Shown: positions 868-28,199, counted from the stretch's first letter. The stretch is 44,897 bases of DNA from a virus (IMGVR_UViG_2872688378_000003), one strand, 5' to 3'. Notes: generated by a model not told the origin, from the letters alone. A program made the numbers and translations.

Positions 868-1623
868 TTATTCAGAATCAATATCTTTTAAATCATCCTG
901 AATCGCTTGTGCGTTCGGATTTTCCTGCGGTTTGAGTTCGCCGCCATTAGCGATGAAATCATGACGCTGGAAGTACGCTTCGCGCACCATAATATAAGGA
1001 TCGGACGACTGACGCAGCAGACCATCGGAATCCAACAACTGCGCACGAGTTTCTATCCCTTCAAGCGTCCATTTACCCACAGACATCGGCCAGGTCAGCC
1101 AGGAAAGAACCGGGTAAAGACCATCCGCCATATCACCACCGTCATCACGCAGCGTGAAGCTACCGTAGAACGGTAACTGAACGTAAGGCCCATAACCCAC
1201 GCCATAATGACCAAGCGTACTACCGAAGCGGTGAGGTTCAGTCCGTTGCAGTTTCGGGTTCGCCATCCCTGCAACATCAATAAAACCGCCCATCCCCAAA
1301 ATGGTGTTCAGGAAAAAGCGGGTAAAGTGGACCATCCCCTGATAAGGGTCGCCCTGCAAGAAGTAGTTAACCATCACCGCAGGTTCTTCAAGGTTGCCAG
1401 TAAAGTTGCTCAAACCGTTACGCGCCGGTTGCGGAACATAATCACGCCAGGCGACAGCGACCGGTCGAACAATATACGGGTCTAATACATTGAAGTTGAA
1501 GTTGTACATGGTGCGGTTGAACCCTTCTAACGGGTCAGAACGCCCTTGCTGATCTGTACCGGAACTCGCACACCCCACCAGAAGCGTAGTTCCCAGAGCA
1601 AGCGCCGACAGGCGAAGCTTCAT
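868..1623 (-). CDS. mlaA: Phospholipid-binding outer-membrane lipoprotein MlaA (VacJ)
   Basis: 251-aa ORF with lipoprotein signal (LLVGCAS) and sequence matching MlaA/VacJ from memory; expected neighbour of yfdC-argW. Confidence 0.85.
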   Translation of the reverse strand: MKLRLSALALGTTLLVGCASSGTDQQGRSDPLEGFNRTMYNFNFNVLDPYIVRPVAVAWRDYVPQPARNGLSNFTGNLEEPAVMVNYFLQGDPYQGMVHFTRFFLNTILGMGGFIDVAGMANPKLQRTEPHRFGSTLGHYGVGYGPYVQLPFYGSFTLRDDGGDMADGLYPVLSWLTWPMSVGKWTLEGIETRAQLLDSDGLLRQSSDPYIMVREAYFQRHDFIANGGELKPQENPNAQAIQDDLKDIDSE

Positions 1624-5742: not shown

Positions 5743-6404
5743 GCTCCTACATCAAAACCACTGATGAATTCGTTATCCATATCAAAACCAAAAAATTTTG
5801 AGCCTTCCGATGGGGTTTCCACCGAAGGTGTTTCAATGCCACCCGCCCACACCCCGGCGGCTTTTACTGTGAGATATCCCTGTTTAATTGCAGCAATTAA
5901 CTCACGCGATACATCTGAAATATCAGTATCAGGAAAGACCCAGACCGATATCGTCATGTCCTGGTTATCGACTATCTGCATTCGCAGCCCGGATCCTGCT
6001 GTTGCCGCGTCAAGAATTGCCGGAAGCGAATCATTCCGTCCGTCCCAGTTATTAATCGCAATCTTCGCTTTAAGAATGACACGATAAGTTTCATCGCTGA
6101 GATACATGTATCCGGAATCAGGATCATATGGCCCCTGCCACACCCCCTGATCATATCCAAGCCCGTCGGTATCCCAGCTGAAATAGACACCTGAGATAGG
6201 CTGGCGGACAACACGGCTACGTCCGATCCACAATCCCAGAATGTCAAGTTGCACACCAACCGCAGAGTCAATATCAAATGCAGTAATCAGCCCTCTGGTG
6301 GCAGCCGCAACATCAATAAGCGGCCGGGTCATCAGATCAACATGCGCAAGAAATTTAGGTTTGGTGGCGTGGTAGTTCGTGATTAGTTCGGTGTATTTGC
6401 TCAT
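5724..6404 (-). CDS. Baseplate/tail protein (Mu gp48-like position)
   Basis: 226-aa ORF in tight overlap chain between J-like gene and tail fibre. Confidence 0.55.
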   Translation of the reverse strand: MSKYTELITNYHATKPKFLAHVDLMTRPLIDVAAATRGLITAFDIDSAVGVQLDILGLWIGRSRVVRQPISGVYFSWDTDGLGYDQGVWQGPYDPDSGYMYLSDETYRVILKAKIAINNWDGRNDSLPAILDAATAGSGLRMQIVDNQDMTISVWVFPDTDISDVSRELIAAIKQGYLTVKAAGVWAGGIETPSVETPSEGSKFFGFDMDNEFISGFDVGAWGVLL

Positions 6405-7600
6405 GACTCCACCGTTATAACGATATTTTCCGGGGTACAGGACGCAGATTCGTTATATCTGATATCAATGTTTGATGACGACAAAGCCCCCGGGGATTTC
6501 CCAATCGTCAGTTCCTGAATATCGTAATAGCGTGCATTCCCGCCACTCACCACGCCAAGATTCGCCGGTGAGTAAATGCGACTTAAAAGGACCGAATCAC
6601 CGATCGTAAGACTATTGATATAGTCGGAAATAGCCTGCTGGATCTGCTGCCCTATCTGTGAGGTATAACCCGTAAAAACTTTTAATTTAATCCGGGCATA
6701 AACAGGCACATCACTGGAACGCGAGAATTTGATTACATAGGGATTGCCGTATTTATCCGGAACCGTAACGGATGTTGTACCGTGAGTGGCTGTACCCTGG
6801 CCTTTATTCCCTCTGATAGCCTGAGCAATATCCGTCACATCACCGCCATCCACAATCACAGCAACAGAGTGTGGCGGTAACCCGTTACCGTCCTCCGAAC
6901 CAGTATCGTTTTCATAGAGTTTGTGGCGGGTTACACCGGTAACATTAGAAACAGCACCATCCAGTGCTTCAAATGGGGTTATTGATGGCAGCGCAACACT
7001 CTGCGACTGGCGGATACGTAACTCCGCGTCAGTTTCTGCCGGAGTGCCCACAGTAGCTGCAGCAGGATTGGTTACCGAAACCCAGCCACGGGTTGGCGTA
7101 TTAATTTCAGTGATAGTTCCAGCCAGCGCCGCCACTGCACCACTGACGGAACATGTTGCGGTCACCATCACTGTACCATCCACGCCGACCACCACTGAAG
7201 CAGGCAAACGCCATATCACATTATTACTGTCTTTCACGCTGCCATTAATGATGGTTGTTCCGGCAGTTCCTGTAAGAAGCAAATCAACCGTAGAGTTCGT
7301 CGCGCCTTTACGTGAAATACCATTTATTTTCACGTTACTGGTCAGTGCAGCCCCATAGCCGGTTGCCGGTGAAAAACAGTTGTAGACAGTTATCGCCATA
7401 TTATTGGCATCATGAATCGCCAGCGCCATCAGAGCCACCATCTGGCCGTCTTTGCTGTCCGGTTCGAGGTAGGCATCACTGCCATAAACCTGCTGAAAAT
7501 AGCTAATCAGGGTGCTGAGTATCGTCTGATAATCAGGCGCACTGATCCCCTCCGCGGTTACCTTTGCAGATAAACCGAGAGAATCAAGGTTCAGAGCCAT
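6401..7600 (-). CDS. Baseplate J-like protein (Mu gp47 / P2 gpJ family)
   Basis: 399-aa ORF, position and size typical of baseplate J; 4-nt overlaps with neighbours. Confidence 0.65.
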   Translation of the reverse strand: MALNLDSLGLSAKVTAEGISAPDYQTILSTLISYFQQVYGSDAYLEPDSKDGQMVALMALAIHDANNMAITVYNCFSPATGYGAALTSNVKINGISRKGATNSTVDLLLTGTAGTTIINGSVKDSNNVIWRLPASVVVGVDGTVMVTATCSVSGAVAALAGTITEINTPTRGWVSVTNPAAATVGTPAETDAELRIRQSQSVALPSITPFEALDGAVSNVTGVTRHKLYENDTGSEDGNGLPPHSVAVIVDGGDVTDIAQAIRGNKGQGTATHGTTSVTVPDKYGNPYVIKFSRSSDVPVYARIKLKVFTGYTSQIGQQIQQAISDYINSLTIGDSVLLSRIYSPANLGVVSGGNARYYDIQELTIGKSPGALSSSNIDIRYNESASCTPENIVITVES

Positions 7601-7953
7601 TACGCCTCCGATGTAACAGTCGTTATTCCATAGAGAGTGTCGATTTCAGCGGAAAACATGACACGTCGGGTCGTGGTATCCACCGTCGTATTGAAAGAGA
7701 GGATTGATTTAACGCCCCGCGTTTCGAGGATGCGCTTACGGATCGCCAGGTTGTAGGTTTCCGGCTTCTGCTTACCGAGTACGGACTGGATCCACGGAGT
7801 CCCTTCGGTGGTATCGAGAAACCATTGCCCATACCACAATTCGAATCGCGTTTTTACCGCCTGCGCCACTGCCTCCGGTGAGTTAATCAGCCAGGTGTCA
7901 TCACCGCTGCCAAAGGTATAATCGCCATCGGCGTCTTCACGTCTGTATCGCAT
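7600..7953 (-). CDS. Baseplate wedge protein (gp25/W-like)
   Basis: 117-aa ORF between spike and J-like genes, overlapping start/stop. Confidence 0.55.
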   Translation of the reverse strand: MRYRREDADGDYTFGSGDDTWLINSPEAVAQAVKTRFELWYGQWFLDTTEGTPWIQSVLGKQKPETYNLAIRKRILETRGVKSILSFNTTVDTTTRRVMFSAEIDTLYGITTVTSEA

Positions 7954-8708
7954 CAGTTAGGCGCTCCTGTGTTACCGCCGCCGGTCTGTACTCCGCCGTG
8001 CGTGTGCGTCATCAGGCTCTTACCACCAGCTTTTACATCGTTAGTCACCGTGACAGGGCCAAGCATCGTCGCGGTGCCGCCGCTTTCGCCCATTCCCTGA
8101 GACAGATTGCCATTAATCGTTACGTTGCCGTTCAGCGTGATAGTCGGGGATGTGATTGTTGTTCCACCTTCAGCCGTAGCCGTGAGCTGGCCCGGTGTTT
8201 GAACGGTGATGTTATGTCCTGCGGCAACCTCTACGAACGCCGCACCATCATCGGTTCGCAGCTGCGCGGCGCTGGTACTGATACCGCTGATTTTCTGTGC
8301 TTGCGACTGCGGGCCAACGATGGCGAACGCATCCGATAAATCATGCATTCTGTCATCAACCGTCTCCTGTATCCCGCCGCTCTGCCACCAGAAATCAATA
8401 CAACGATCGGCAAAAACGACAAGACACTCATCCCCAGCTTTTACCGGAAAAGTCAACGTACAGCCTCCGCCGCGCGGGAATACCACCGGCACATCCACCA
8501 GCAGCGGGTAATTTTTGGTAACGCGATTGCCGTCGTTATCCGTTTCAACGGAACGGATAGCAGGCTGCACAACCGCCGTCACCGCGTCAGGGTCGAATGA
8601 CTGAACGATGCCAGGCAAAGCGACGCGGATCTGGTTCTTTGTGGTTTCCCGTTCAGATTTGAATGTTTCAGCAAGGTCGCCGCTGCGGGTCTGGTCAGAT
8701 ACTGCCAT
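7953..8708 (-). CDS. Baseplate assembly protein V / central spike
   Basis: 251 aa with Gly/Thr-rich C-terminal repeat region (…TAEGGTTITSPTITLNGNVTINGN…) typical of spike proteins; SD GGAG upstream of ATG at 8708. Confidence 0.65.
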   Translation of the reverse strand: MAVSDQTRSGDLAETFKSERETTKNQIRVALPGIVQSFDPDAVTAVVQPAIRSVETDNDGNRVTKNYPLLVDVPVVFPRGGGCTLTFPVKAGDECLVVFADRCIDFWWQSGGIQETVDDRMHDLSDAFAIVGPQSQAQKISGISTSAAQLRTDDGAAFVEVAAGHNITVQTPGQLTATAEGGTTITSPTITLNGNVTINGNLSQGMGESGGTATMLGPVTVTNDVKAGGKSLMTHTHGGVQTGGGNTGAPN

Positions 8709-8721
8709 TTAGTAGGCTCCA

Positions 8722-8750
8722 GAAAGCAAAAAACCCGCCGGGTGGCGGGT
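8722..8750 (-). terminator. Rho-independent terminator closing the inserted two-gene cassette
   Basis: Minus strand reads AACCCGCC-ACCC-GGCGGG followed by TTTTTTGC directly after the TAA stop at 8751-8753. Confidence 0.7.
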
Positions 8751-9167
8751 TTATGAATCGTAGGTTTTCAATTTTTCGAGTTCATCAGGAGGAAGTTCTA
8801 TGAAGGTTTCCTCTGCTAATTTTATCAGCCGGGGAAGCATCGAATCAGCTTGCTGATGAGCGTTTGGGCTGATGATTGCCAATATCTGATAGTGTTCATC
8901 GATATAAAGATGCTGAGCATATACCAAAAAATTATCACATGTCCGTTCACTCAGAGATGCTTCTGTAGGCCAGGGTTTATCGCCAGGTAGCTTTAAGTGA
9001 ATTTTCCTGATGTTGGCAGCCATCGCATCATAGTTACGTTCAAAACCGCCTAACGAACCAAAACACCAGAACTGGGAACCCTTTGAAATATAATCGGCAA
9101 GCATTTGAGCATACTTATGTGCTGCAGCTAAATGACGCAATTCTCCCGTGATACTGACTTTTGCCAT
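8751..9167 (-). CDS. Hypothetical protein, second gene of inserted cassette (138 aa)
   Basis: ORF with ATG 1 nt after stop of upstream gene (TGA C ATG); average GC about 42 percent, below flanking baseplate genes; no family recognised. Confidence 0.6.
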   Translation of the reverse strand: MAKVSITGELRHLAAAHKYAQMLADYISKGSQFWCFGSLGGFERNYDAMAANIRKIHLKLPGDKPWPTEASLSERTCDNFLVYAQHLYIDEHYQILAIISPNAHQQADSMLPRLIKLAEETFIELPPDELEKLKTYDS

Positions 9168-9168
9168 G

Positions 9169-9747
9169 TCACATCCATTTAGGGGCGTTGGCTCCCAGCA
9201 TCTTATGCGATGTTGAGATCAGTTCAATAGCCTCTTCACGGGTAACATTATCTGACAAGAGTTCAGCCTGGAAAGGCTGCGATTGCCTAACTTCAGCGGC
9301 CAACTGAGTTGCAGTGTTCTCGACGGCGGTCAACGCACGAACATATTTGCGTTTTAATGGGCGCAACATTTGCAGATGGCCTTGCCACATAGGGGACCTT
9401 TCCGCTTCAGAGAACATATCCACTAAATGTCCTTTAGCATTTCGGCATGCCTTGGCAAGACCTTCGAGATGGGATAAAAACTCTTCCGGAAGCTCATCAA
9501 CAATGATTCTCCCATTTCTAAAAGCTTCGAGATGAGACATGCCTTCCTTCGCGGTATTTTCGATTTCTTGAGCGCGTGCAGCAATCGCGGTACAACGACG
9601 AAATACCTCTTCAGCATCTAATCGTTGTGGCAGTTCACAAGCATTAGAGATCAGGGGTTTGAAAGCACCGTTAACAGCTTCCTGAACCTGATTCATTTGT
9701 TGTGTAATTGTTGCCAGCGCAAATGCGTAGCTAATCGCCATACCCAA
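9169..9747 (-). CDS. Hypothetical protein, first gene of inserted cassette (about 190 aa)
   Basis: ORF track start is TTG at 9747; ATG at 9741 has SD AGAGGGA about 7 nt upstream; contains a short Rx4H motif (RNAKGH) of uncertain significance; no family recognised. Confidence 0.6.
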   Translation of the reverse strand: MGMAISYAFALATITQQMNQVQEAVNGAFKPLISNACELPQRLDAEEVFRRCTAIAARAQEIENTAKEGMSHLEAFRNGRIIVDELPEEFLSHLEGLAKACRNAKGHLVDMFSEAERSPMWQGHLQMLRPLKRKYVRALTAVENTATQLAAEVRQSQPFQAELLSDNVTREEAIELISTSHKMLGANAPKWM

Positions 9748-9909
9748 TCCCTCTGTCGTTTTAAACGACTATACACCACTTATTCAAAGTTAGCTGAGCG
9801 CTAAAAGTTCGCAAAGTTTAGTGATCATGCAACCACCTAGCAAGCGATAAAAAATCATTATTTAGTGAATGTGAACAAACTCAACACTATGCAGAAATGT
9901 AACTTTTGG
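9748..9909 (-). promoter_or_regulatory. AT-rich untranslated region upstream of the cassette, candidate promoter
   Basis: 162 bp with no ORF, AT-rich, contains sigma70-like hexamers on the minus strand (e.g. TATAGT, TTGAAT); exact -35/-10 pairing not resolvable by eye. Confidence 0.35.
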
Positions 9910-10251
9910 TTAACCATCAACCTTTTTACACGGGAAAGATCCGATAATTTTCGGTGCATCCATGCTGTTCTGCAGCAGTTGGACGTTCAGGAATCGCGTT
10001 TCGGTACCAGGGCGACGAATGTATTCAAAGCCGTAGTTGTTACCGTCTTTGGCAGGCATAATCCCCATGTCTACTTTCAAACCATTGGTACCCAGTTCGG
10101 TGATTTTTTGAGAGGTAACTCTTTCACCGTTAATTGTCGATAACTCGCCCTGGTTTGCAACCATAGTGTAGCCACCGCATTTAACCGTGAAGCCATCCGC
10201 CCACACGCTGCACGCAGAAAAGACAGCTAACAGAAAAATGATACCCCTCAT
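9910..10251 (-). CDS. Small exported protein with N-terminal signal peptide (113 aa)
   Basis: N-terminus MRGIIFLLAVFSACSVWA is a signal peptide (possible SPase I site after VWA, or atypical lipobox FSAC); SD AAGGGGA upstream; start 3 nt after hub stop. Confidence 0.6.
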   Translation of the reverse strand: MRGIIFLLAVFSACSVWADGFTVKCGGYTMVANQGELSTINGERVTSQKITELGTNGLKVDMGIMPAKDGNNYGFEYIRRPGTETRFLNVQLLQNSMDAPKIIGSFPCKKVDG

Positions 10252-10254
10252 TGC

Positions 10255-11316
10255 TCATCCCCTTTGCAAAGCCGATTGCGTATACAGATCCGCCGCGCCA
10301 CGCGCTTCGCACATCATATCCATGTACCACGCCTGGCCCCTTGTATCGCCAGTGTACATAATCCCGCGCACAATATAAACGCCATCCGTTGCGATGCTGG
10401 CAGGTTGTGCTGTGGTGCCGCTGAGCGTGATATTTCCGTCTGTGTTCTGGTCGGTGATCTGCCCACCAGCCATCGCGATATCATTGTTCGACAGCGCAGT
10501 GCGGTACACGGAAGCCTGATCCAGCTGAATAAGCCCGTTAACCCGGATGTTCGGATTAATAAGAGCGCGGACGTTTACGCCGTTACCGATAGTCTGCTGC
10601 GGCATGCCGATAAGCCCGGTGGCGCTGTTGAGCACAATCGCGTCGTGAACATACTCGTTATTCGCCACCATCTGGCGCTGACCGTCCACAAATTGCCATG
10701 TTGCGCCACATTGTCCGGCCACGTTATCCATAAGATGCCGTGTCATGCCGAACAGCACCCGCCCTCGAGGGTATACGGTAGCAGGCATTTCAGGCGTCAG
10801 TCCTTCGGTCGCGCCTTTGGCCTCAAAGTCTTTCATCAGCGCACGGTTCACATCTGCGACTGTGTAACCGGCAGCCAGCGTCTGTGAGGTTATACTGGTG
10901 GCAAATGCCAGATCAGTATCTGCTGCCTGAATCAGGACGTAGGTATCAACCGGACTGTCTTTTCCTGTGACCGAGTAGCGAATTTCTCCGCTGAAAATCA
11001 GCCCGTAGTTGCGGCCATCACTCTGGCCCACGTCCGCCGCGTCAACTTCCCGCACAGTCCCGACGTCGCTTGCCGCCACCTCCGGCGCGATACCGTCGTA
11101 ACCGGCAATCAGCCGCACTTTCGAAAACTCCTGCCCGGTAATTCGGTTCACAGTATCTGCCGAAAGGTTATAAATTTTGATAGTCCCTACCCGGGACGCG
11201 CTGCTGATGTTGAACCAGTCGATCGTAAAGGTGACTTTGAAATCACTTAGCTCAATTCCCTTACCGTTCCCGTCCACAAGCTGCAGCTCGAAATGTCTCA
11301 TCCAGTTCTGTGACAT
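10255..11316 (-). CDS. Baseplate hub protein (Mu gp44 / P-like)
   Basis: 353-aa ORF downstream of tape measure and two small tail genes, order typical of Mu-like baseplate modules. Confidence 0.55.
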   Translation of the reverse strand: MSQNWMRHFELQLVDGNGKGIELSDFKVTFTIDWFNISSASRVGTIKIYNLSADTVNRITGQEFSKVRLIAGYDGIAPEVAASDVGTVREVDAADVGQSDGRNYGLIFSGEIRYSVTGKDSPVDTYVLIQAADTDLAFATSITSQTLAAGYTVADVNRALMKDFEAKGATEGLTPEMPATVYPRGRVLFGMTRHLMDNVAGQCGATWQFVDGQRQMVANNEYVHDAIVLNSATGLIGMPQQTIGNGVNVRALINPNIRVNGLIQLDQASVYRTALSNNDIAMAGGQITDQNTDGNITLSGTTAQPASIATDGVYIVRGIMYTGDTRGQAWYMDMMCEARGAADLYTQSALQRG

Positions 11317-11318
11317 GC

Positions 11319-11621
11319 TTACTCCGTTGATACCAGCAAATGACTGCGCCCGCCCAGGTCAGTTTTCGTGGGATAATCCTGTGTGTTGTCATCGCAGACC
11401 ACCAACAGCTTAAAACCAAGTCCCATACAGGCGTACTGCGCCAGCAGATCAGCGCCAGTGACGAGAGGAATACCGGAGATTACCGGCTCTCCTCTGTCGT
11501 TCTGCAGGTCCATAATCCAGTAAGGATCGCGCCATATGATGCTAATCCGCCAGGTGACACCACCCAGGACGATGCTGAACTGCTGGTTGTCCGCTGTCAG
11601 CGGAATTTCCTGAATTGTCAT
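11319..11621 (-). CDS. Tail/baseplate protein (100 aa)
   Basis: ORF in overlap chain between tape-measure-adjacent gene and hub. Confidence 0.5.
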   Translation of the reverse strand: MTIQEIPLTADNQQFSIVLGGVTWRISIIWRDPYWIMDLQNDRGEPVISGIPLVTGADLLAQYACMGLGFKLLVVCDDNTQDYPTKTDLGGRSHLLVSTE

Positions 11622-12208
11622 TAGCCGCCTCCCAGTAATGACGCCACGTTACCCGTGATGCTTTTCAGCAGTGAAGTATCTGGAGGCTTTGTGGTTTTGT
11701 TACCGCTATTCTGTACCGCCGACGTGCTGGCCCCTTCCTTCATGTTGGTTTTATCCGCGACGGTAATCTGCTGTGTCCGGGAGATAATGACCTCCCTCAG
11801 GGTGAGGACGGCGGACAGGACGTTTTCGGTTGTCTTGTCCGTCGTCACTTCCAGCGCCCGGATCAACATGTTGCTGTACAGCCGTTTACCGGTTACCACA
11901 TCGAAGGGGATACGGCTTTCCTGCAGATCCAGTAGCTCCTGATACGTCTGCTGAGGACTCAGGCCGAGCAGGCTGGTAGCCGTCAGATTACTGGCAAAAT
12001 CCAGCAATGCGCCGCCACCGGCGAAACCAACCTCCATCACCACTTCTGACGGTTTTTTATAGGCATGATCAGCGACAGCGGCCCCGACCTCTACCGGATG
12101 CTCTGTTATTTCAAGCATATCTGTATGCTTCTCTGAAATAACAACACTGGGAACAATCATTCCTATTTTTCTGCTCTGCTGATGAAAAAGTGTAGAGAGA
12201 ATATCCAC
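11621..12208 (-). CDS. Tail protein (DNA circulation-like position, 195 aa)
   Basis: ORF immediately downstream of tape measure with overlapping stop/start. Confidence 0.5.
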   Translation of the reverse strand: MDILSTLFHQQSRKIGMIVPSVVISEKHTDMLEITEHPVEVGAAVADHAYKKPSEVVMEVGFAGGGALLDFASNLTATSLLGLSPQQTYQELLDLQESRIPFDVVTGKRLYSNMLIRALEVTTDKTTENVLSAVLTLREVIISRTQQITVADKTNMKEGASTSAVQNSGNKTTKPPDTSLLKSITGNVASLLGGG

Positions 12209-14217
12209 TAACCCACCCTCACCTGATTACTTCGCATGACCTGAGCATTTGCAGACTGTTGCCGACGTGCAACCTCATTACCGACAGCGTGCGGATCTCC
12301 GCCACCGTAAATGTGGTAAGTATTTTGCTGGTTAACCTCTGTCATTTTGCCACTAATTCCCGCCACGGCAGCCTTATTAATCAGCTCTCGAGAATAGATA
12401 TTTCTTCCATTCTCATGCTGGATAATGCTGCTCATCAATGCTGACATGGTTTGCGGATCGCTCATATTCAGGGCAGCCCGGGGATCCACTCCCAGTCGTT
12501 GCGATACAGCCCTGATATACGCAGTTGTGTTGTTATTATCAGACGCAGGTGCCCAGGTAGAGATAATTTTCTCCACACTGTTTATTCCCCGTCCTGCGTA
12601 CAGCATTAACTGACGAGCAAGAGCCCGTAATCCATCAAAAGCAGTTTCAAATCTGGCAAATCGCCCGCCCGGGCGTTCAAGAGAAGCCCCTGCCTGACCA
12701 GCAAAATTAAGGTTTCCCGGATTGTTATTCCGTTCTCCTCGTTTCGTAGCCTGTGCATATTGTTCCGGCTCATCATCACCAAACCAGCCGCGTACCGTCC
12801 GGCCCACACTGCGGGGATCGAATCCCCAGTGCTCTTTAATCCAGTCGGCAGTACTGTTAGCGCTGTCTGTAACCATCGGCATCGCTGACGGATTTTCGCT
12901 GCCCTGATTAAGTATCTGTTTGCCGATGATGACGGCATCAGCCCAGCGGCCATCTTTGATAGCGTTGAGCAGGTCGGCGATCATGTTCAGCATTTTGCTG
13001 AATTCGCCCATCTGGTCGATGAAGTTGCTGAAATCCCACTTCAGGGACCATGATTTGGGGTCAATATTGAGCAGTTTCGCCAGCGCTTTCGCCAGTTCAT
13101 TAACAGACCCTTTCAGGTCACGAACCATCTTCAGCGCGGCATCGACCTCCGGCTTCCACTTGCCCCAGTCAATCAGGCTGTCGCCGCCTTCCTTCCAGGT
13201 CTGATAGTCCTCCCACAGAAGGGCAATCCCCGCCGCCAGCGCGGTAATGAGGCCAATCGGCGACATCCAGAACGTACTGTTCAGAATGCGCAGCGCAATC
13301 GTCAGCGCGCCAAACAGCGAGATGAGCTCCCGCGTTTGCTTATCCAGCGATTGCCACCAGGTGATAAGGCTGGATGTTCCCTCAATTAGCCTGAAGAACA
13401 GCCGCCCGATGATGTCTCCGATCGCCAGAATGCCTTTTATGGCTTTCGTCAGGGTCTGCTCGATGCGCGGGAAGTTATCGAGGATGTGGCGGCGCAGTGT
13501 GTCCAGCGAACCCGCCAGACCACCAGCAAGATTAGAGCCGATTTTGTCACGGGCCATGCCTGCCATCGCGCCGAACTCGCGCAGGGAGGTCATGAATTTG
13601 TTGGAGCTTCTGGCCGCCTCGTCAGCATTGAAGCCGATAGCTTTCGCCATTGCGCTGTACTGCCCGGAGAAATCACCCACACCCCGGCGCATCGCCATAA
13701 GGGTATTTTCGTCAATGCCTAGCATCTGCGCATACTGGTTAGCCCGGTAATACGGCATGCCGCTGAGCTTCTGGCCTACACCTGTAAAAATAGCGGCCAT
13801 GTCACGCATGTTACCGCTGGCATCCCGTGTCTGTACCCCCAGGCGATTCAGGAATCCTTCCGCGCCGGGATTGTTACGAACAAACCGGGAGAGGCTTTCC
13901 AGAGAGGTTCGCGCCGCGTCCACGCTGCCGCCAACCTGCGAAACCGCATAGCCAATAGACTGAATTCCCTGGACTGTCGCGCCGGTGCGCTGTGACGCCC
14001 GGTAAAGATTATCCAGGCCGGAGGCGATCTTAGCCGTGAAGGCCACCACGGACAGCGCAGCTCCTTCAACGGCCAGTCCCATTTTGATGGCATTTGCAGT
14101 TGTACCGGCGAGGACAGAACCGAACTTTTTCGCTCCTGCATCATCCACACTGAAGCCAAGCGAGACGAGGAAATCTTTAATAGTTTCAGCGTTCATTATC
14201 CTCTCTCCATTTCTCAA
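12208..14217 (-). CDS. Tail tape measure protein
   Basis: Long ORF after tail chaperone; likely true start ATG at 14196 (MNAETIKDFL...) with SD GGAGAGAGG; ORF track start at 14217 is TTG. Confidence 0.8.
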   Translation of the reverse strand: MRNGERIMNAETIKDFLVSLGFSVDDAGAKKFGSVLAGTTANAIKMGLAVEGAALSVVAFTAKIASGLDNLYRASQRTGATVQGIQSIGYAVSQVGGSVDAARTSLESLSRFVRNNPGAEGFLNRLGVQTRDASGNMRDMAAIFTGVGQKLSGMPYYRANQYAQMLGIDENTLMAMRRGVGDFSGQYSAMAKAIGFNADEAARSSNKFMTSLREFGAMAGMARDKIGSNLAGGLAGSLDTLRRHILDNFPRIEQTLTKAIKGILAIGDIIGRLFFRLIEGTSSLITWWQSLDKQTRELISLFGALTIALRILNSTFWMSPIGLITALAAGIALLWEDYQTWKEGGDSLIDWGKWKPEVDAALKMVRDLKGSVNELAKALAKLLNIDPKSWSLKWDFSNFIDQMGEFSKMLNMIADLLNAIKDGRWADAVIIGKQILNQGSENPSAMPMVTDSANSTADWIKEHWGFDPRSVGRTVRGWFGDDEPEQYAQATKRGERNNNPGNLNFAGQAGASLERPGGRFARFETAFDGLRALARQLMLYAGRGINSVEKIISTWAPASDNNNTTAYIRAVSQRLGVDPRAALNMSDPQTMSALMSSIIQHENGRNIYSRELINKAAVAGISGKMTEVNQQNTYHIYGGGDPHAVGNEVARRQQSANAQVMRSNQVRVG

Positions 14218-26981: not shown

Positions 26982-27419
26982 TTATTTTAAGCACTGCGTC
27001 CTAATGTACTCCTGCAAGTAGTTAACCTGCGCGGTTATCCTGTCGATTCCACTTCGGAGACGGTAATAATTGAGTTCAGCATCTGCTGTAAGTCTTGGGC
27101 TTTCTCCATCGCCCATGCTGCTGGCTCCGGTCGTTGACTTTGCACAGGTGGCGGCGACTTGCAGGCGCTTACGCCCAGCAGAAACATCAGCACGGAGACT
27201 TTCGATAGTCGCGTTAGCATCAGCAAGCTCCTTTGTATATCTGGTGTCGAGTTCTGTTACGTCACGTTGACGCTTTTGCATGTCAGCGATGATGGATGCG
27301 GCCTTATCGCGCTGTTCTTTGTAGGCGATGGCGTTATCACGGTAATGATTAACAGCCCATAACAGGCAGACGATGATGCAGATAACCAGAGCGGAGATAA
27401 TCGCGGTTACTCTGCTCAT
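26982..27419 (-). CDS. Rz: Spanin inner-membrane subunit Rz
   Basis: Translation [19 protein letters not shown]... matches lambda Rz N-terminal TM region; follows R. Confidence 0.85.
27035..27226 (-). CDS. Rz1: Spanin outer-membrane lipoprotein Rz1 (embedded in Rz, +1 frame)
   Basis: Embedded ORF with lipobox LGVSAC and proline-rich segment, as in lambda Rz1. Confidence 0.75.
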
Positions 27420-27892
27420 ACCTCAATCTCTCTGACCGTTCCGCCTGCTTCTTTGAATTTTGCAATCAGGCTGTCAGCCTTATGCTCGAACTGACCATAA
27501 CCAGCCCCCGGAAGTGAAGCCCAGATATTACTGCAACGGTCGATTGCCTGACGGATATCACCGCGATCAATCATCGGCAAAGCGCCACGCTCCTTAATCT
27601 GCTGCAGCGCAACAGCGTCCTGGCTTTTGGGAGAGAAGTCTTTCAGGCCAAGCTGCTTACGATAGGCATCCCACCAACGGGAAAGAAGCTGGTAACGTCC
27701 GGCTGCTGTTGATTTGAGTTTGGGGTTTAGCGTGACAAGTTTGCGAGGGTGATCTGAGTAATCAGTGAATAGCTCTCCGCCAACAATGACGTCATAACCA
27801 TGATTTCTGGTTTTCTGACGTCCGTTATCAGTTCCCTCTGACCACGCCAGCATATCGAGGAACGCCTTACGTTGATTATTGATTTCCACCAT
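27416..27892 (-). CDS. R: Endolysin R (lytic transglycosylase)
   Basis: 158-aa translation [39 protein letters not shown]... essentially identical to lambda R as recalled. Confidence 0.9.
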
Positions 27893-28199
27893 CTTCTACT
27901 CCGGCTTTTTTAGCAGCGAAGCGTTTGATAAGCGAACCAATCGAGTCAGTACCGATGTAGCCGATGAACACGCTCGTTATATAAGCGAGATTGCTACTTA
28001 GTCCGGCGAAGTCGAGAAGGTCACGAATGAACCAGGCGATAATGGCGCACATCGTTGCGTCGATTACTGTTTTTGTAAACGCACCGCCATTATATCTGCC
28101 GCGAAGGTACGCCATTGCAAACGCAAGGATTGCCCCGATGCCTTGTTCCTTTGCCGCGAGAATGGCGGCTAACAGGTCATGTTTTTCTGGCATCTTCAT
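27876..28199 (-). CDS. S: Holin S (S107/S105 dual-start)
   Basis: Translation [20 protein letters not shown]... matches lambda S including the Met-Lys-Met dual start. Confidence 0.9.

Follow-up and report, generated by a model that had tools for sequence, protein, structure and literature searches.

Our results suggest that a small gene directly behind the baseplate hub gene of a temperate phage encodes an exported protein that is not part of the virion and that may protect the cell envelope against other phages. The gene lies in IMGVR_UViG_2872688378_000003, a stretch of 44,897 nucleotides of viral DNA (the window, by which we always mean this whole stretch). The window is a prophage of E. 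coli. Copies of the 2.7-kb region around the gene with 100% identity are present in several complete genomes of this species; strains CUVET20-1667 and ETEC4089 carry such copies, and 324 of the 5,426 complete genomes match the region. The gene, which we call the target gene, occupies positions 9910 to 10251 (stop codon included) on the minus strand and specifies a precursor of 113 amino acids. Going by comparisons of sequence, it is very probable that the product is an exported, non-structural accessory protein. That it serves SEN34-like temperate myophages as an accessory protein outside the virion, with envelope protection as its most likely role, is about an even bet, and that its job is the exclusion of other phages we put forward more tentatively. 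Exported accessory proteins in tail operons are a kind already known; what we add is a conserved exported-protein slot beside the hub gene.

The argument for export begins with the N-terminus. Residues 1–18 (MRGIIFLLAVFSACSVWA; 10198–10251, minus strand) were delimited from alignments; they open with a basic n-region, continue with a hydrophobic core and close with V-W-A, after which DG follows. With a hydrophobic region of 10–13 residues and with positions −3 and −1 both taken by small residues, they have all the features of a signal peptide of the Sec pathway, and cleavage by signal peptidase I would fall after V-W-A. All eight allele groups, as well as distant members of the family, retain this architecture (their ends are ASA/SG, ATA/GG, ALA/NG, AFA/DL and AMA/AI, where the slash marks the presumed cut), even though pairwise identity of the N-termini is only about 23%. 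Keeping its character while the sequence drifts is how a cleaved signal peptide usually behaves. A crude signal-peptide rule is positive in 84 of 93 full-length members, compared with 6 of 58 open reading frames (ORFs) of the window.

The mature part tells a similar story. Two cysteines, C25 and C108 in precursor numbering, are invariant across 31 diverse members, down to 25% identity. The structural model described below is a barrel with C25 in its first strand and C108 in its last, and the two probably form a disulfide, which fits a periplasmic location without proving it. A third cysteine, C14, falls within the signal peptide and lacks such conservation. The initial annotation had predicted export from the N-terminal signal peptide of a 113-residue ORF and had noted two cysteines in its mature part; the ORF is real and lies on the minus strand, and the persistence of the signal peptide in every allele and of both cysteines throughout the family strengthens that prediction. 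The annotation had also considered a lipoprotein, an option that does not hold up. The FSAC motif of the window resembles a lipobox, but its cysteine is missing in most homologues (e.g., FISFSAAASG and FASFGATAGG), and we therefore rejected the idea that the family consists of lipoproteins.

The second line of evidence concerns the position of the gene. We surveyed 99 loci of IMG/VR, deduplicated and with hubs that share at least 96% identity with that of the window, and asked which ORF starts no more than 120 nucleotides past the hub stop. The target family fills this position in 88 loci, a lipoprotein of 241 residues (MSRLAITTIVFSLFLTSC..., with an LTSC lipobox) in five and a signal-peptide protein of about 150 residues (MKKQVIVAITMLISTTSFA...) in six; not a single locus is empty. 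Both alternative occupants are unrelated to the target protein. The survey shows the post-hub position to be a conserved exported-protein slot, always taken by a gene for a predicted exported protein in these 99 close relatives. Comparable genes are found further afield. The 150-residue type begins 3 nucleotides past the hub gene of Hafnia phage yong1, and EKP1 has two other unrelated signal-peptide ORFs at the hub-adjacent position. Burkholderia phage Magia carries an unrelated signal-peptide ORF between hub and spike on the opposite strand, and Providencia phage PSTCR3 one just before the hub. None of the alternative exported occupants beside the hub has a significant match in Pfam, PHROGs or NCBIfam.

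Third, tails of this type appear to be built without such a protein. We sampled relatives along a gradient of divergence by tblastn with the hub protein; a scan of distant-hub alignments returned close relatives only. The hub gene abuts or overlaps the spike gene directly in Pam3, whose tail module is annotated in its database record, and in Salmonella phage BP63, Aggregatibacter phage S1249, Acinetobacter phage AbTJ and Providencia phage PSTCR3; this implies that the tail encoded by these homologous modules assembles without a counterpart of the target protein. The cryo-electron microscopy structure of the E217 baseplate describes a cap made of gp36, gp37/38, gp41 (the hub) and gp43 (the tip), with no protein between hub and tip (PMC10329688). 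A gene between hub and spike does exist in PB1-like phages (ORF40 of PB1, the counterpart of E217 gp42; L110 3601–4134); it has no signal peptide, and we rejected it as an equivalent of the target gene. E217 gp42 is not mentioned in the paper on the E217 virion. The view that an exported protein is not an expected tail component, also expressed in the initial annotation, agrees with the direct contact of hub and spike genes elsewhere and with the finding that an unrelated lipoprotein can fill the same slot.

The layout of the gene points to expression together with the tail. Its start codon (10251–10249) and stop codon (9912–9910) lie on the minus strand, as do all surrounding tail genes. The hub gene ends with TGA at 10257–10255, so that only 3 nucleotides (10254–10252) separate it from the target ATG. 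A Shine-Dalgarno sequence, AAGGGGA (10264–10258), is located about 7 nucleotides 5′ of the ATG and overlaps the end of the hub gene, bearing out the good ribosome binding site and the start 3 nucleotides behind the hub that had been described before. A crude consensus scan detected neither a sigma-70-like promoter of the gene's own nor a terminator nearby; sites of either kind were found only around the cassette on the 3′ side of the gene. Translational coupling to the hub gene is the likely route to co-expression with the late tail operon, as had been proposed. A plus-strand ORF that overlaps the target gene (9865–10143) has no support.

There is little doubt that the target gene is real and not a chance ORF: a match to a protein family, several hundred homologues, its pattern of selection and its place in isolated phages all argue for this. 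Residues 2–112 align with positions 2–114 of the 115 positions of the PHROG 3443 profile (E 1.5e-47), a family labelled ‘unknown function’. In a database of proteins clustered at 90% identity we counted 384 homologues, every one of them labelled ‘hypothetical’. A search of 1.8 billion representatives at 50% identity gave 40 matches at E ≤ 0.001, several of which are fragments and four of which are spurious (P0125, P0138, P0146 and P0158 are giant repeat proteins, rejected as homologues because their matches are driven by repeats). The ratio of nonsynonymous to synonymous substitution rates over 57 unique coding sequences is 0.135 for the mature part and 0.69 for the first 18 codons, a pattern of purifying selection on the mature part and of drift in the signal peptide. 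In the isolated phages SEN34, Mulock and YP3, the family gene takes the same position behind the hub.

Judged by these searches the family is a narrow one of Enterobacterales prophages. Its hosts comprise E. coli, Salmonella (including the Typhi genes STY1065 and STY2022), Klebsiella, Citrobacter, Enterobacter, Pantoea, Yersinia and Photorhabdus. The name that NCBI gives to an identical protein, encoded in E. coli TUM1880, is ‘STY1065/STY2022 family phage-derived protein’; the target protein is a full-length member of this family and of PHROG 3443, and neither label carries a function. Across genera the family moves together with the tail module: in most of 21 loci, taken from genomes of Pantoea, Citrobacter, Enterobacter, Raoultella, Yersinia, Photorhabdus and others, the hub gene is directly upstream. 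Sequence searches against Pfam (E ≤ 0.1), NCBIfam and the proteins in the PDB gave no match. We found no mention of STY1065 or STY2022 in the literature, and literature searches on SEN34 proteomics and on hot spots or exclusion turned up nothing relevant either.

Three members of the family depart from the rule. A distant one of 118 residues with a signal peptide (P0157) is encoded on the chromosome of Mixta calida, between cls/yciY and yciI-tonB (L008 8001–8357); the cluster to which it belongs has entries from 166 contigs, with Mixta calida given as the organism. The gene is conserved within the species and may be a domesticated copy or a cellular ancestor. In Serratia marcescens, a lipoprotein of 292 residues (P0144, lipobox LSGC) has the barrel of the target family as its C-terminal domain behind about 190 unrelated residues, which indicates that the barrel can be tethered to a membrane. 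Finally, one IMG/VR prophage contains a frameshifted, split copy of the gene (L037 8066–8406), from which it follows that the phage tolerates loss of the target gene, at least as a prophage.

What does the mature protein look like? A run of AlphaFold2 with the signal peptide and a shallow alignment yielded a predicted local distance difference test (pLDDT) score of 73. With the mature sequence of 95 amino acids (9913–10197, minus strand) and a more diverse alignment, the pLDDT was 91 and the predicted template modelling score 0.79. The resulting model is an eight-stranded up-and-down beta-barrel. Among its seven main strands, five are 5–8 residues and one is 10 residues long, hydrophobic and polar residues alternate, and the C-terminus (...FPCKKVDG) is non-aromatic. 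Together with the cysteines, these properties favour a soluble barrel over a membrane barrel. An outer-membrane barrel of the Lom, OmpX or Ail type was rejected on the short strands and the non-aromatic C-terminus, as judged from the sequence and the secondary structure of the model. The predicted fold is a generic one and does not assign a function to the protein, and the model found no match in a library of viral structures.

The composition of the gene is consistent with an acquired gene. Its guanine-plus-cytosine (GC) content of 46.8% places it between the tail genes (52–56%) and the cassette that follows (42–47%), and its GC3 (GC at third codon positions) is 0.52, against about 0.6 in the tail genes. 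Of the features that define a classical moron, it has deviant composition and is absent from distant relatives with the same tail module; the crude scan gave it neither a promoter nor a terminator of its own.

We favour the following account of its function. The gene would be expressed as part of the late tail operon, in transcription as well as translation, by way of its coupling to the hub gene. The precursor would be exported through the Sec pathway, cut by signal peptidase I after Ala18, and fold in the periplasm into a soluble eight-stranded barrel of 95 residues, probably clamped by a disulfide between the first and the last strands. There it would act after adsorption on a conserved component of either the host or a phage, and not on the receptor that the fibre of its own phage uses. 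The outcome would be protection against incoming phages at the level of the envelope, that is, superinfection exclusion. Exclusion is a common task of exported phage proteins such as Spackle and Imm of T4, gp15 of HK97, Cor, Llp and Ltp of TP-J34.

The diversity of the protein provides some clues to its partner. Where hubs share at least 96% identity, the plug proteins are at least 89% and the sheath initiators at least 93% identical, and the target proteins fall into six allele groups at 61–100% identity. With flanking genes conserved to this degree and target alleles that go down to 51–63% identity, the gene is a local hot spot of diversity. Pairwise identity between groups is unevenly distributed along the protein: it is 23% in the signal peptide, 39% in mature residues 1–24 (the first hairpin and its loop), 66% in mature residues 25–45 and 80% in mature residues 46–95. 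The tail fibre gene, downstream of the wedge genes, is extremely diverse in its C-terminal region: clustering at 80% identity divides 73 unique combinations into 54 groups, in phages with nearly identical baseplate genes (L009–L188). The window-type allele of the target gene is paired with at least 21 of these groups (adjusted mutual information, AMI, 0.07). Likewise, we saw no linkage between the target allele and the C-terminal allele of the spike.

A further candidate partner is found in the tape measure protein. Its residues 492–623 (12349–12744, minus strand) are homologous to the catalytic domain of the Enc34 endolysin (PDB 7q47, E 5e-13), which has an unusual lysozyme fold (PMC8943055), as well as to the N-terminus of Gp29 (9vvp, E 9e-20). 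This muralytic domain escapes Pfam; the name that the Prokaryotic Genome Annotation Pipeline (PGAP) gives to the tape measure protein is lytic transglycosylase. The target protein does not covary with the lysozyme domain. Domains that are 99–100% identical occur with target alleles that are 62% identical or with unrelated slot proteins, and in the reverse case, divergent alleles of the domain occur with target proteins that are 97–98% identical. Klebsiella phage ST340-VIM1phi10.1 has a member of the target family and a tape measure in which phmmer finds no Enc34-like domain; conversely, the domain is present and the family absent in Providencia phage PSTCR3. The lack of association with fibre, spike and lysozyme alleles suggests that the binding partner is conserved and independent of adsorption specificity.

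Several observations weigh against exclusion as the function. The same lack of linkage to the spike C-terminus and to the lysozyme domain means that a phage partner cannot be named. Conservation of the C-terminal half (80% between allele groups) fits a conserved partner and does not fit an arms race, and the chromosomal homologue of Mixta calida implies that the fold also has a cellular role. None of the database labels of family members mentions a function, and the PADLOC defence models contain no family that matches the protein at E ≤ 1. Classical exclusion requires expression in the lysogen, which the sequence does not support, given that no promoter of the gene's own was found. The main weakness of the exclusion hypothesis lies in two of these results: no sign of expression in the lysogen, and no linkage that would point to a partner.

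One could also go further and speculate that the post-hub slot holds periplasmic ‘tail-tip traps’ of several unrelated folds, a new class of post-adsorption exclusion systems aimed at myophages. Each trap would neutralise the penetrating tip (the spike, the hub or the tape measure) once the sheath has contracted; specificity would come from the hypervariable first hairpin, with the conserved half as an anchor to a host component. We regard this as a long shot.

We judge late-infection, host-fitness, lysozyme-inhibitor and receptor-masking functions to be less probable than exclusion in general. The lysozyme inhibitor is modelled on T4 Spackle (gp61.3): the barrel would bind and inhibit the peptidoglycan-degrading domain in the C-terminal part of the tape measure of an incoming phage and thereby halt penetration by the tail. 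Spackle, like the target protein, is small (about 100 amino acids), has a signal peptide and is periplasmic, and the phage of the window itself carries a tail-associated muralytic domain on which such a protein might act. Both homologies of tape measure residues 492–623 and the transglycosylase name given by PGAP would suit an inhibitor of this kind. However, the two proteins have no sequence relation. Spackle is helical and is an early gene product of a lytic phage, whereas the target protein is predicted to be an all-beta barrel and belongs to the late tail operon of a temperate phage. The absence of covariation with the lysozyme domain also argues against such an inhibitor, as do the two phages that have either the family without a detected domain (ST340-VIM1phi10.1) or the domain without the family (PSTCR3). 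Moreover, the MliC family of Pfam is unmatched even at E 0.1. PliC/MliC inhibitors and PhiA of Brucella show neither a Pfam match nor any other sequence match to the target protein, and avidins and many unrelated barrels score higher than they do. The PliC and MliC families have characteristic loop motifs, and these are not apparent in the target sequence. Overall, inhibition of the tape measure lysozyme seems improbable to us.

It seems similarly improbable that the protein is a helper that acts late in infection. Made only along with the tail genes, it might tune the timing of lysis from the periplasm of a dying cell, as an antiholin or a sensor does, or it might stop released virions from firing on cell debris. 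Such a role would go well with the translational coupling to the hub gene, with the failure of the simple scan to find an upstream sigma-70-like promoter or a terminator directly 3′ of the gene, and with the unrelated slot protein of yong1, which shows the same coupling to its hub gene. Nevertheless, a complete lysis cassette (holin, endolysin and Rz) is present elsewhere in the window, at about 26982–28199. The hub-adjacent exported protein of Magia is encoded on the opposite strand and is thus outside the late transcript, and related lytic phages manage without any such gene.

Could the protein serve the host instead? As a factor of lysogenic conversion similar to Bor or Lom, it would be a periplasmic binding protein that confers resistance to stress or host defences, or that captures a ligand, and conflict between phages would play no part. 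A barrel resembling calycins or avidins is a typical fold for the binding of small ligands, the chromosomal homologue is conserved within Mixta calida, and the C-terminal half is strongly conserved across genera. Outside Mixta, though, members of the family are nearly always bound to one tail module. In addition, unrelated exported proteins replace the target protein, and the next slot contains cargo resembling toxin–antitoxin and defence genes, which makes the region look like a hot spot of conflict. A host-fitness role is in our opinion distinctly doubtful. The resemblance to lom and bor of lambda and to gp15 of HK97 is that all are envelope-directed accessory genes which sit among late structural genes and have a lower GC content than their neighbours. 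Of their products, Lom forms a barrel in the outer membrane, Bor is a lipoprotein and gp15 resides in the inner membrane; the target protein differs in being a predicted soluble mini-barrel, and its gene in having no recognisable promoter or terminator of its own.

Masking of the receptor is less likely still. The initial annotation had suggested superinfection exclusion or receptor masking by the logic of Cor and Llp. On that logic the exported protein would block the outer-membrane receptor of its own phage, and so shield lysogens and spare progeny from adsorbing to dead ends. Cor (of T1, phi80 and N15) and Llp (of T5) are indeed exported phage proteins encoded beside tail genes, and the location and late co-expression of the target gene resemble those of llp in T5 and of cor in T1 and phi80. 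One of the alternative occupants of the slot is a lipoprotein as well. Cor and Llp are lipoproteins that are matched to the receptor of their own phage. The target family, by contrast, is not a lipoprotein family, as the lipobox cysteine is missing in most members, and it is not linked to the type of fibre. With one allele found alongside at least 21 of the 54 fibre types (AMI 0.07 over the 73 unique combinations), the target protein cannot be matched to the receptor specificity of its own fibre, and this weakens the suggestion.

Last, the idea that the target protein is a minor virion or baseplate protein with an uncleaved hydrophobic N-terminus, for example a component of the tail tip that inserts into membranes, could appeal to its location between hub and spike and its co-expression with both, but is hardly credible and was dismissed on comparative synteny and the E217 baseplate description: Pam3 and four other phages have no gene at this position, the E217 cap has no protein between gp41 and gp43, the N-terminus evolves as a cleaved signal peptide does, the putative disulfide of the invariant cysteines would need the periplasm, a lipoprotein can occupy the slot, and one prophage copy is frameshifted.

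The slot may be of use beyond this one gene. Exported accessory proteins of phages are little charted; they have no enzymatic signatures and are overlooked by tools that search for defence systems. An exported-protein slot beside a hot spot for toxin–antitoxin and defence genes offers a simple genomic rule for finding similar proteins. If the target protein does block the entry of phages, it would affect the host ranges of phages used for therapy in these pathogens. If it is a host-fitness factor instead, it would be a widespread gene of lysogenic conversion.

The neighbouring genes of the tail module are all encoded on the minus strand. In the direction of transcription, the tape measure gene (12208–14217) is followed by the genes for a Dit-like protein (11621–12208), a plug of the Pam3_gp18 type (11319–11621) and the baseplate hub (10255–11316). 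The hub matches PHROG 196 (E 9e-90) and, by tblastn, the hub of Pam3; its match to E217_GP41 of Pfam is below the cut-off. Behind the target gene come an AT-rich spacer of 162 nucleotides with 36% GC (9748–9909) and a second variable slot (8731–9747), and then the gene for a baseplate spike of the gpV type (7953–8708), which closes the insertion site and in distant relatives adjoins the hub gene directly. Genes for the sheath initiator (7600–7953) and Baseplate J (6401–7600) complete the series. The target gene is thus located between the hub gene and a cassette, as the initial annotation had stated.

In loci with near-identical hubs (L009–L088), the N-terminal half of the spike is conserved at 83–99% identity, and the alleles of its C-terminal half (7953–8300 in the window, minus strand) are sharply distinct, at either about 97% or about 40% identity. 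These distinct C-terminal alleles suggest that the puncturing tip is itself a module that is swapped.

The cassette between the target gene and the spike (8731–9909, minus strand) resembles a self-contained moron. It starts with a sigma-70-like promoter match in the spacer (9884–9857), which would serve the cassette and not the target gene, and it ends with a strong terminator-like hairpin (8752–8731). Between the two lie an ORF of 192 amino acids (9169–9747), which belongs to PHROG 35514, a family with no assigned function, and a gene for a YafO-like toxin (8751–9167; E 3.5e-17 to the YafO family of Pfam). We did not recognise an antitoxin of the YafN type in the cassette; the 192-residue protein may be a new partner of the toxin.

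This second slot, from the target gene to the spike, is a hot spot whose cargo varies independently of the first slot (L009–L088 and L113–L188). In the first of these sets of loci, the most common cargo is an ORF of about 250 residues together with a HEPN-like protein (23 loci). It is followed by a membrane protein of 79 residues with DUF4282 (15 loci), a different ORF of about 260 residues, again with a HEPN-like protein (13 loci), and the pair of the 192-residue ORF and YafO (10 loci). A pair made up of a 100-residue protein and a 190-residue membrane protein is also found, as are others. Near one end of the window, an ORF of 251 amino acids (868–1623, minus strand) begins with a clear lipoprotein signal (MKLRLSALALGTTLLVGC...).
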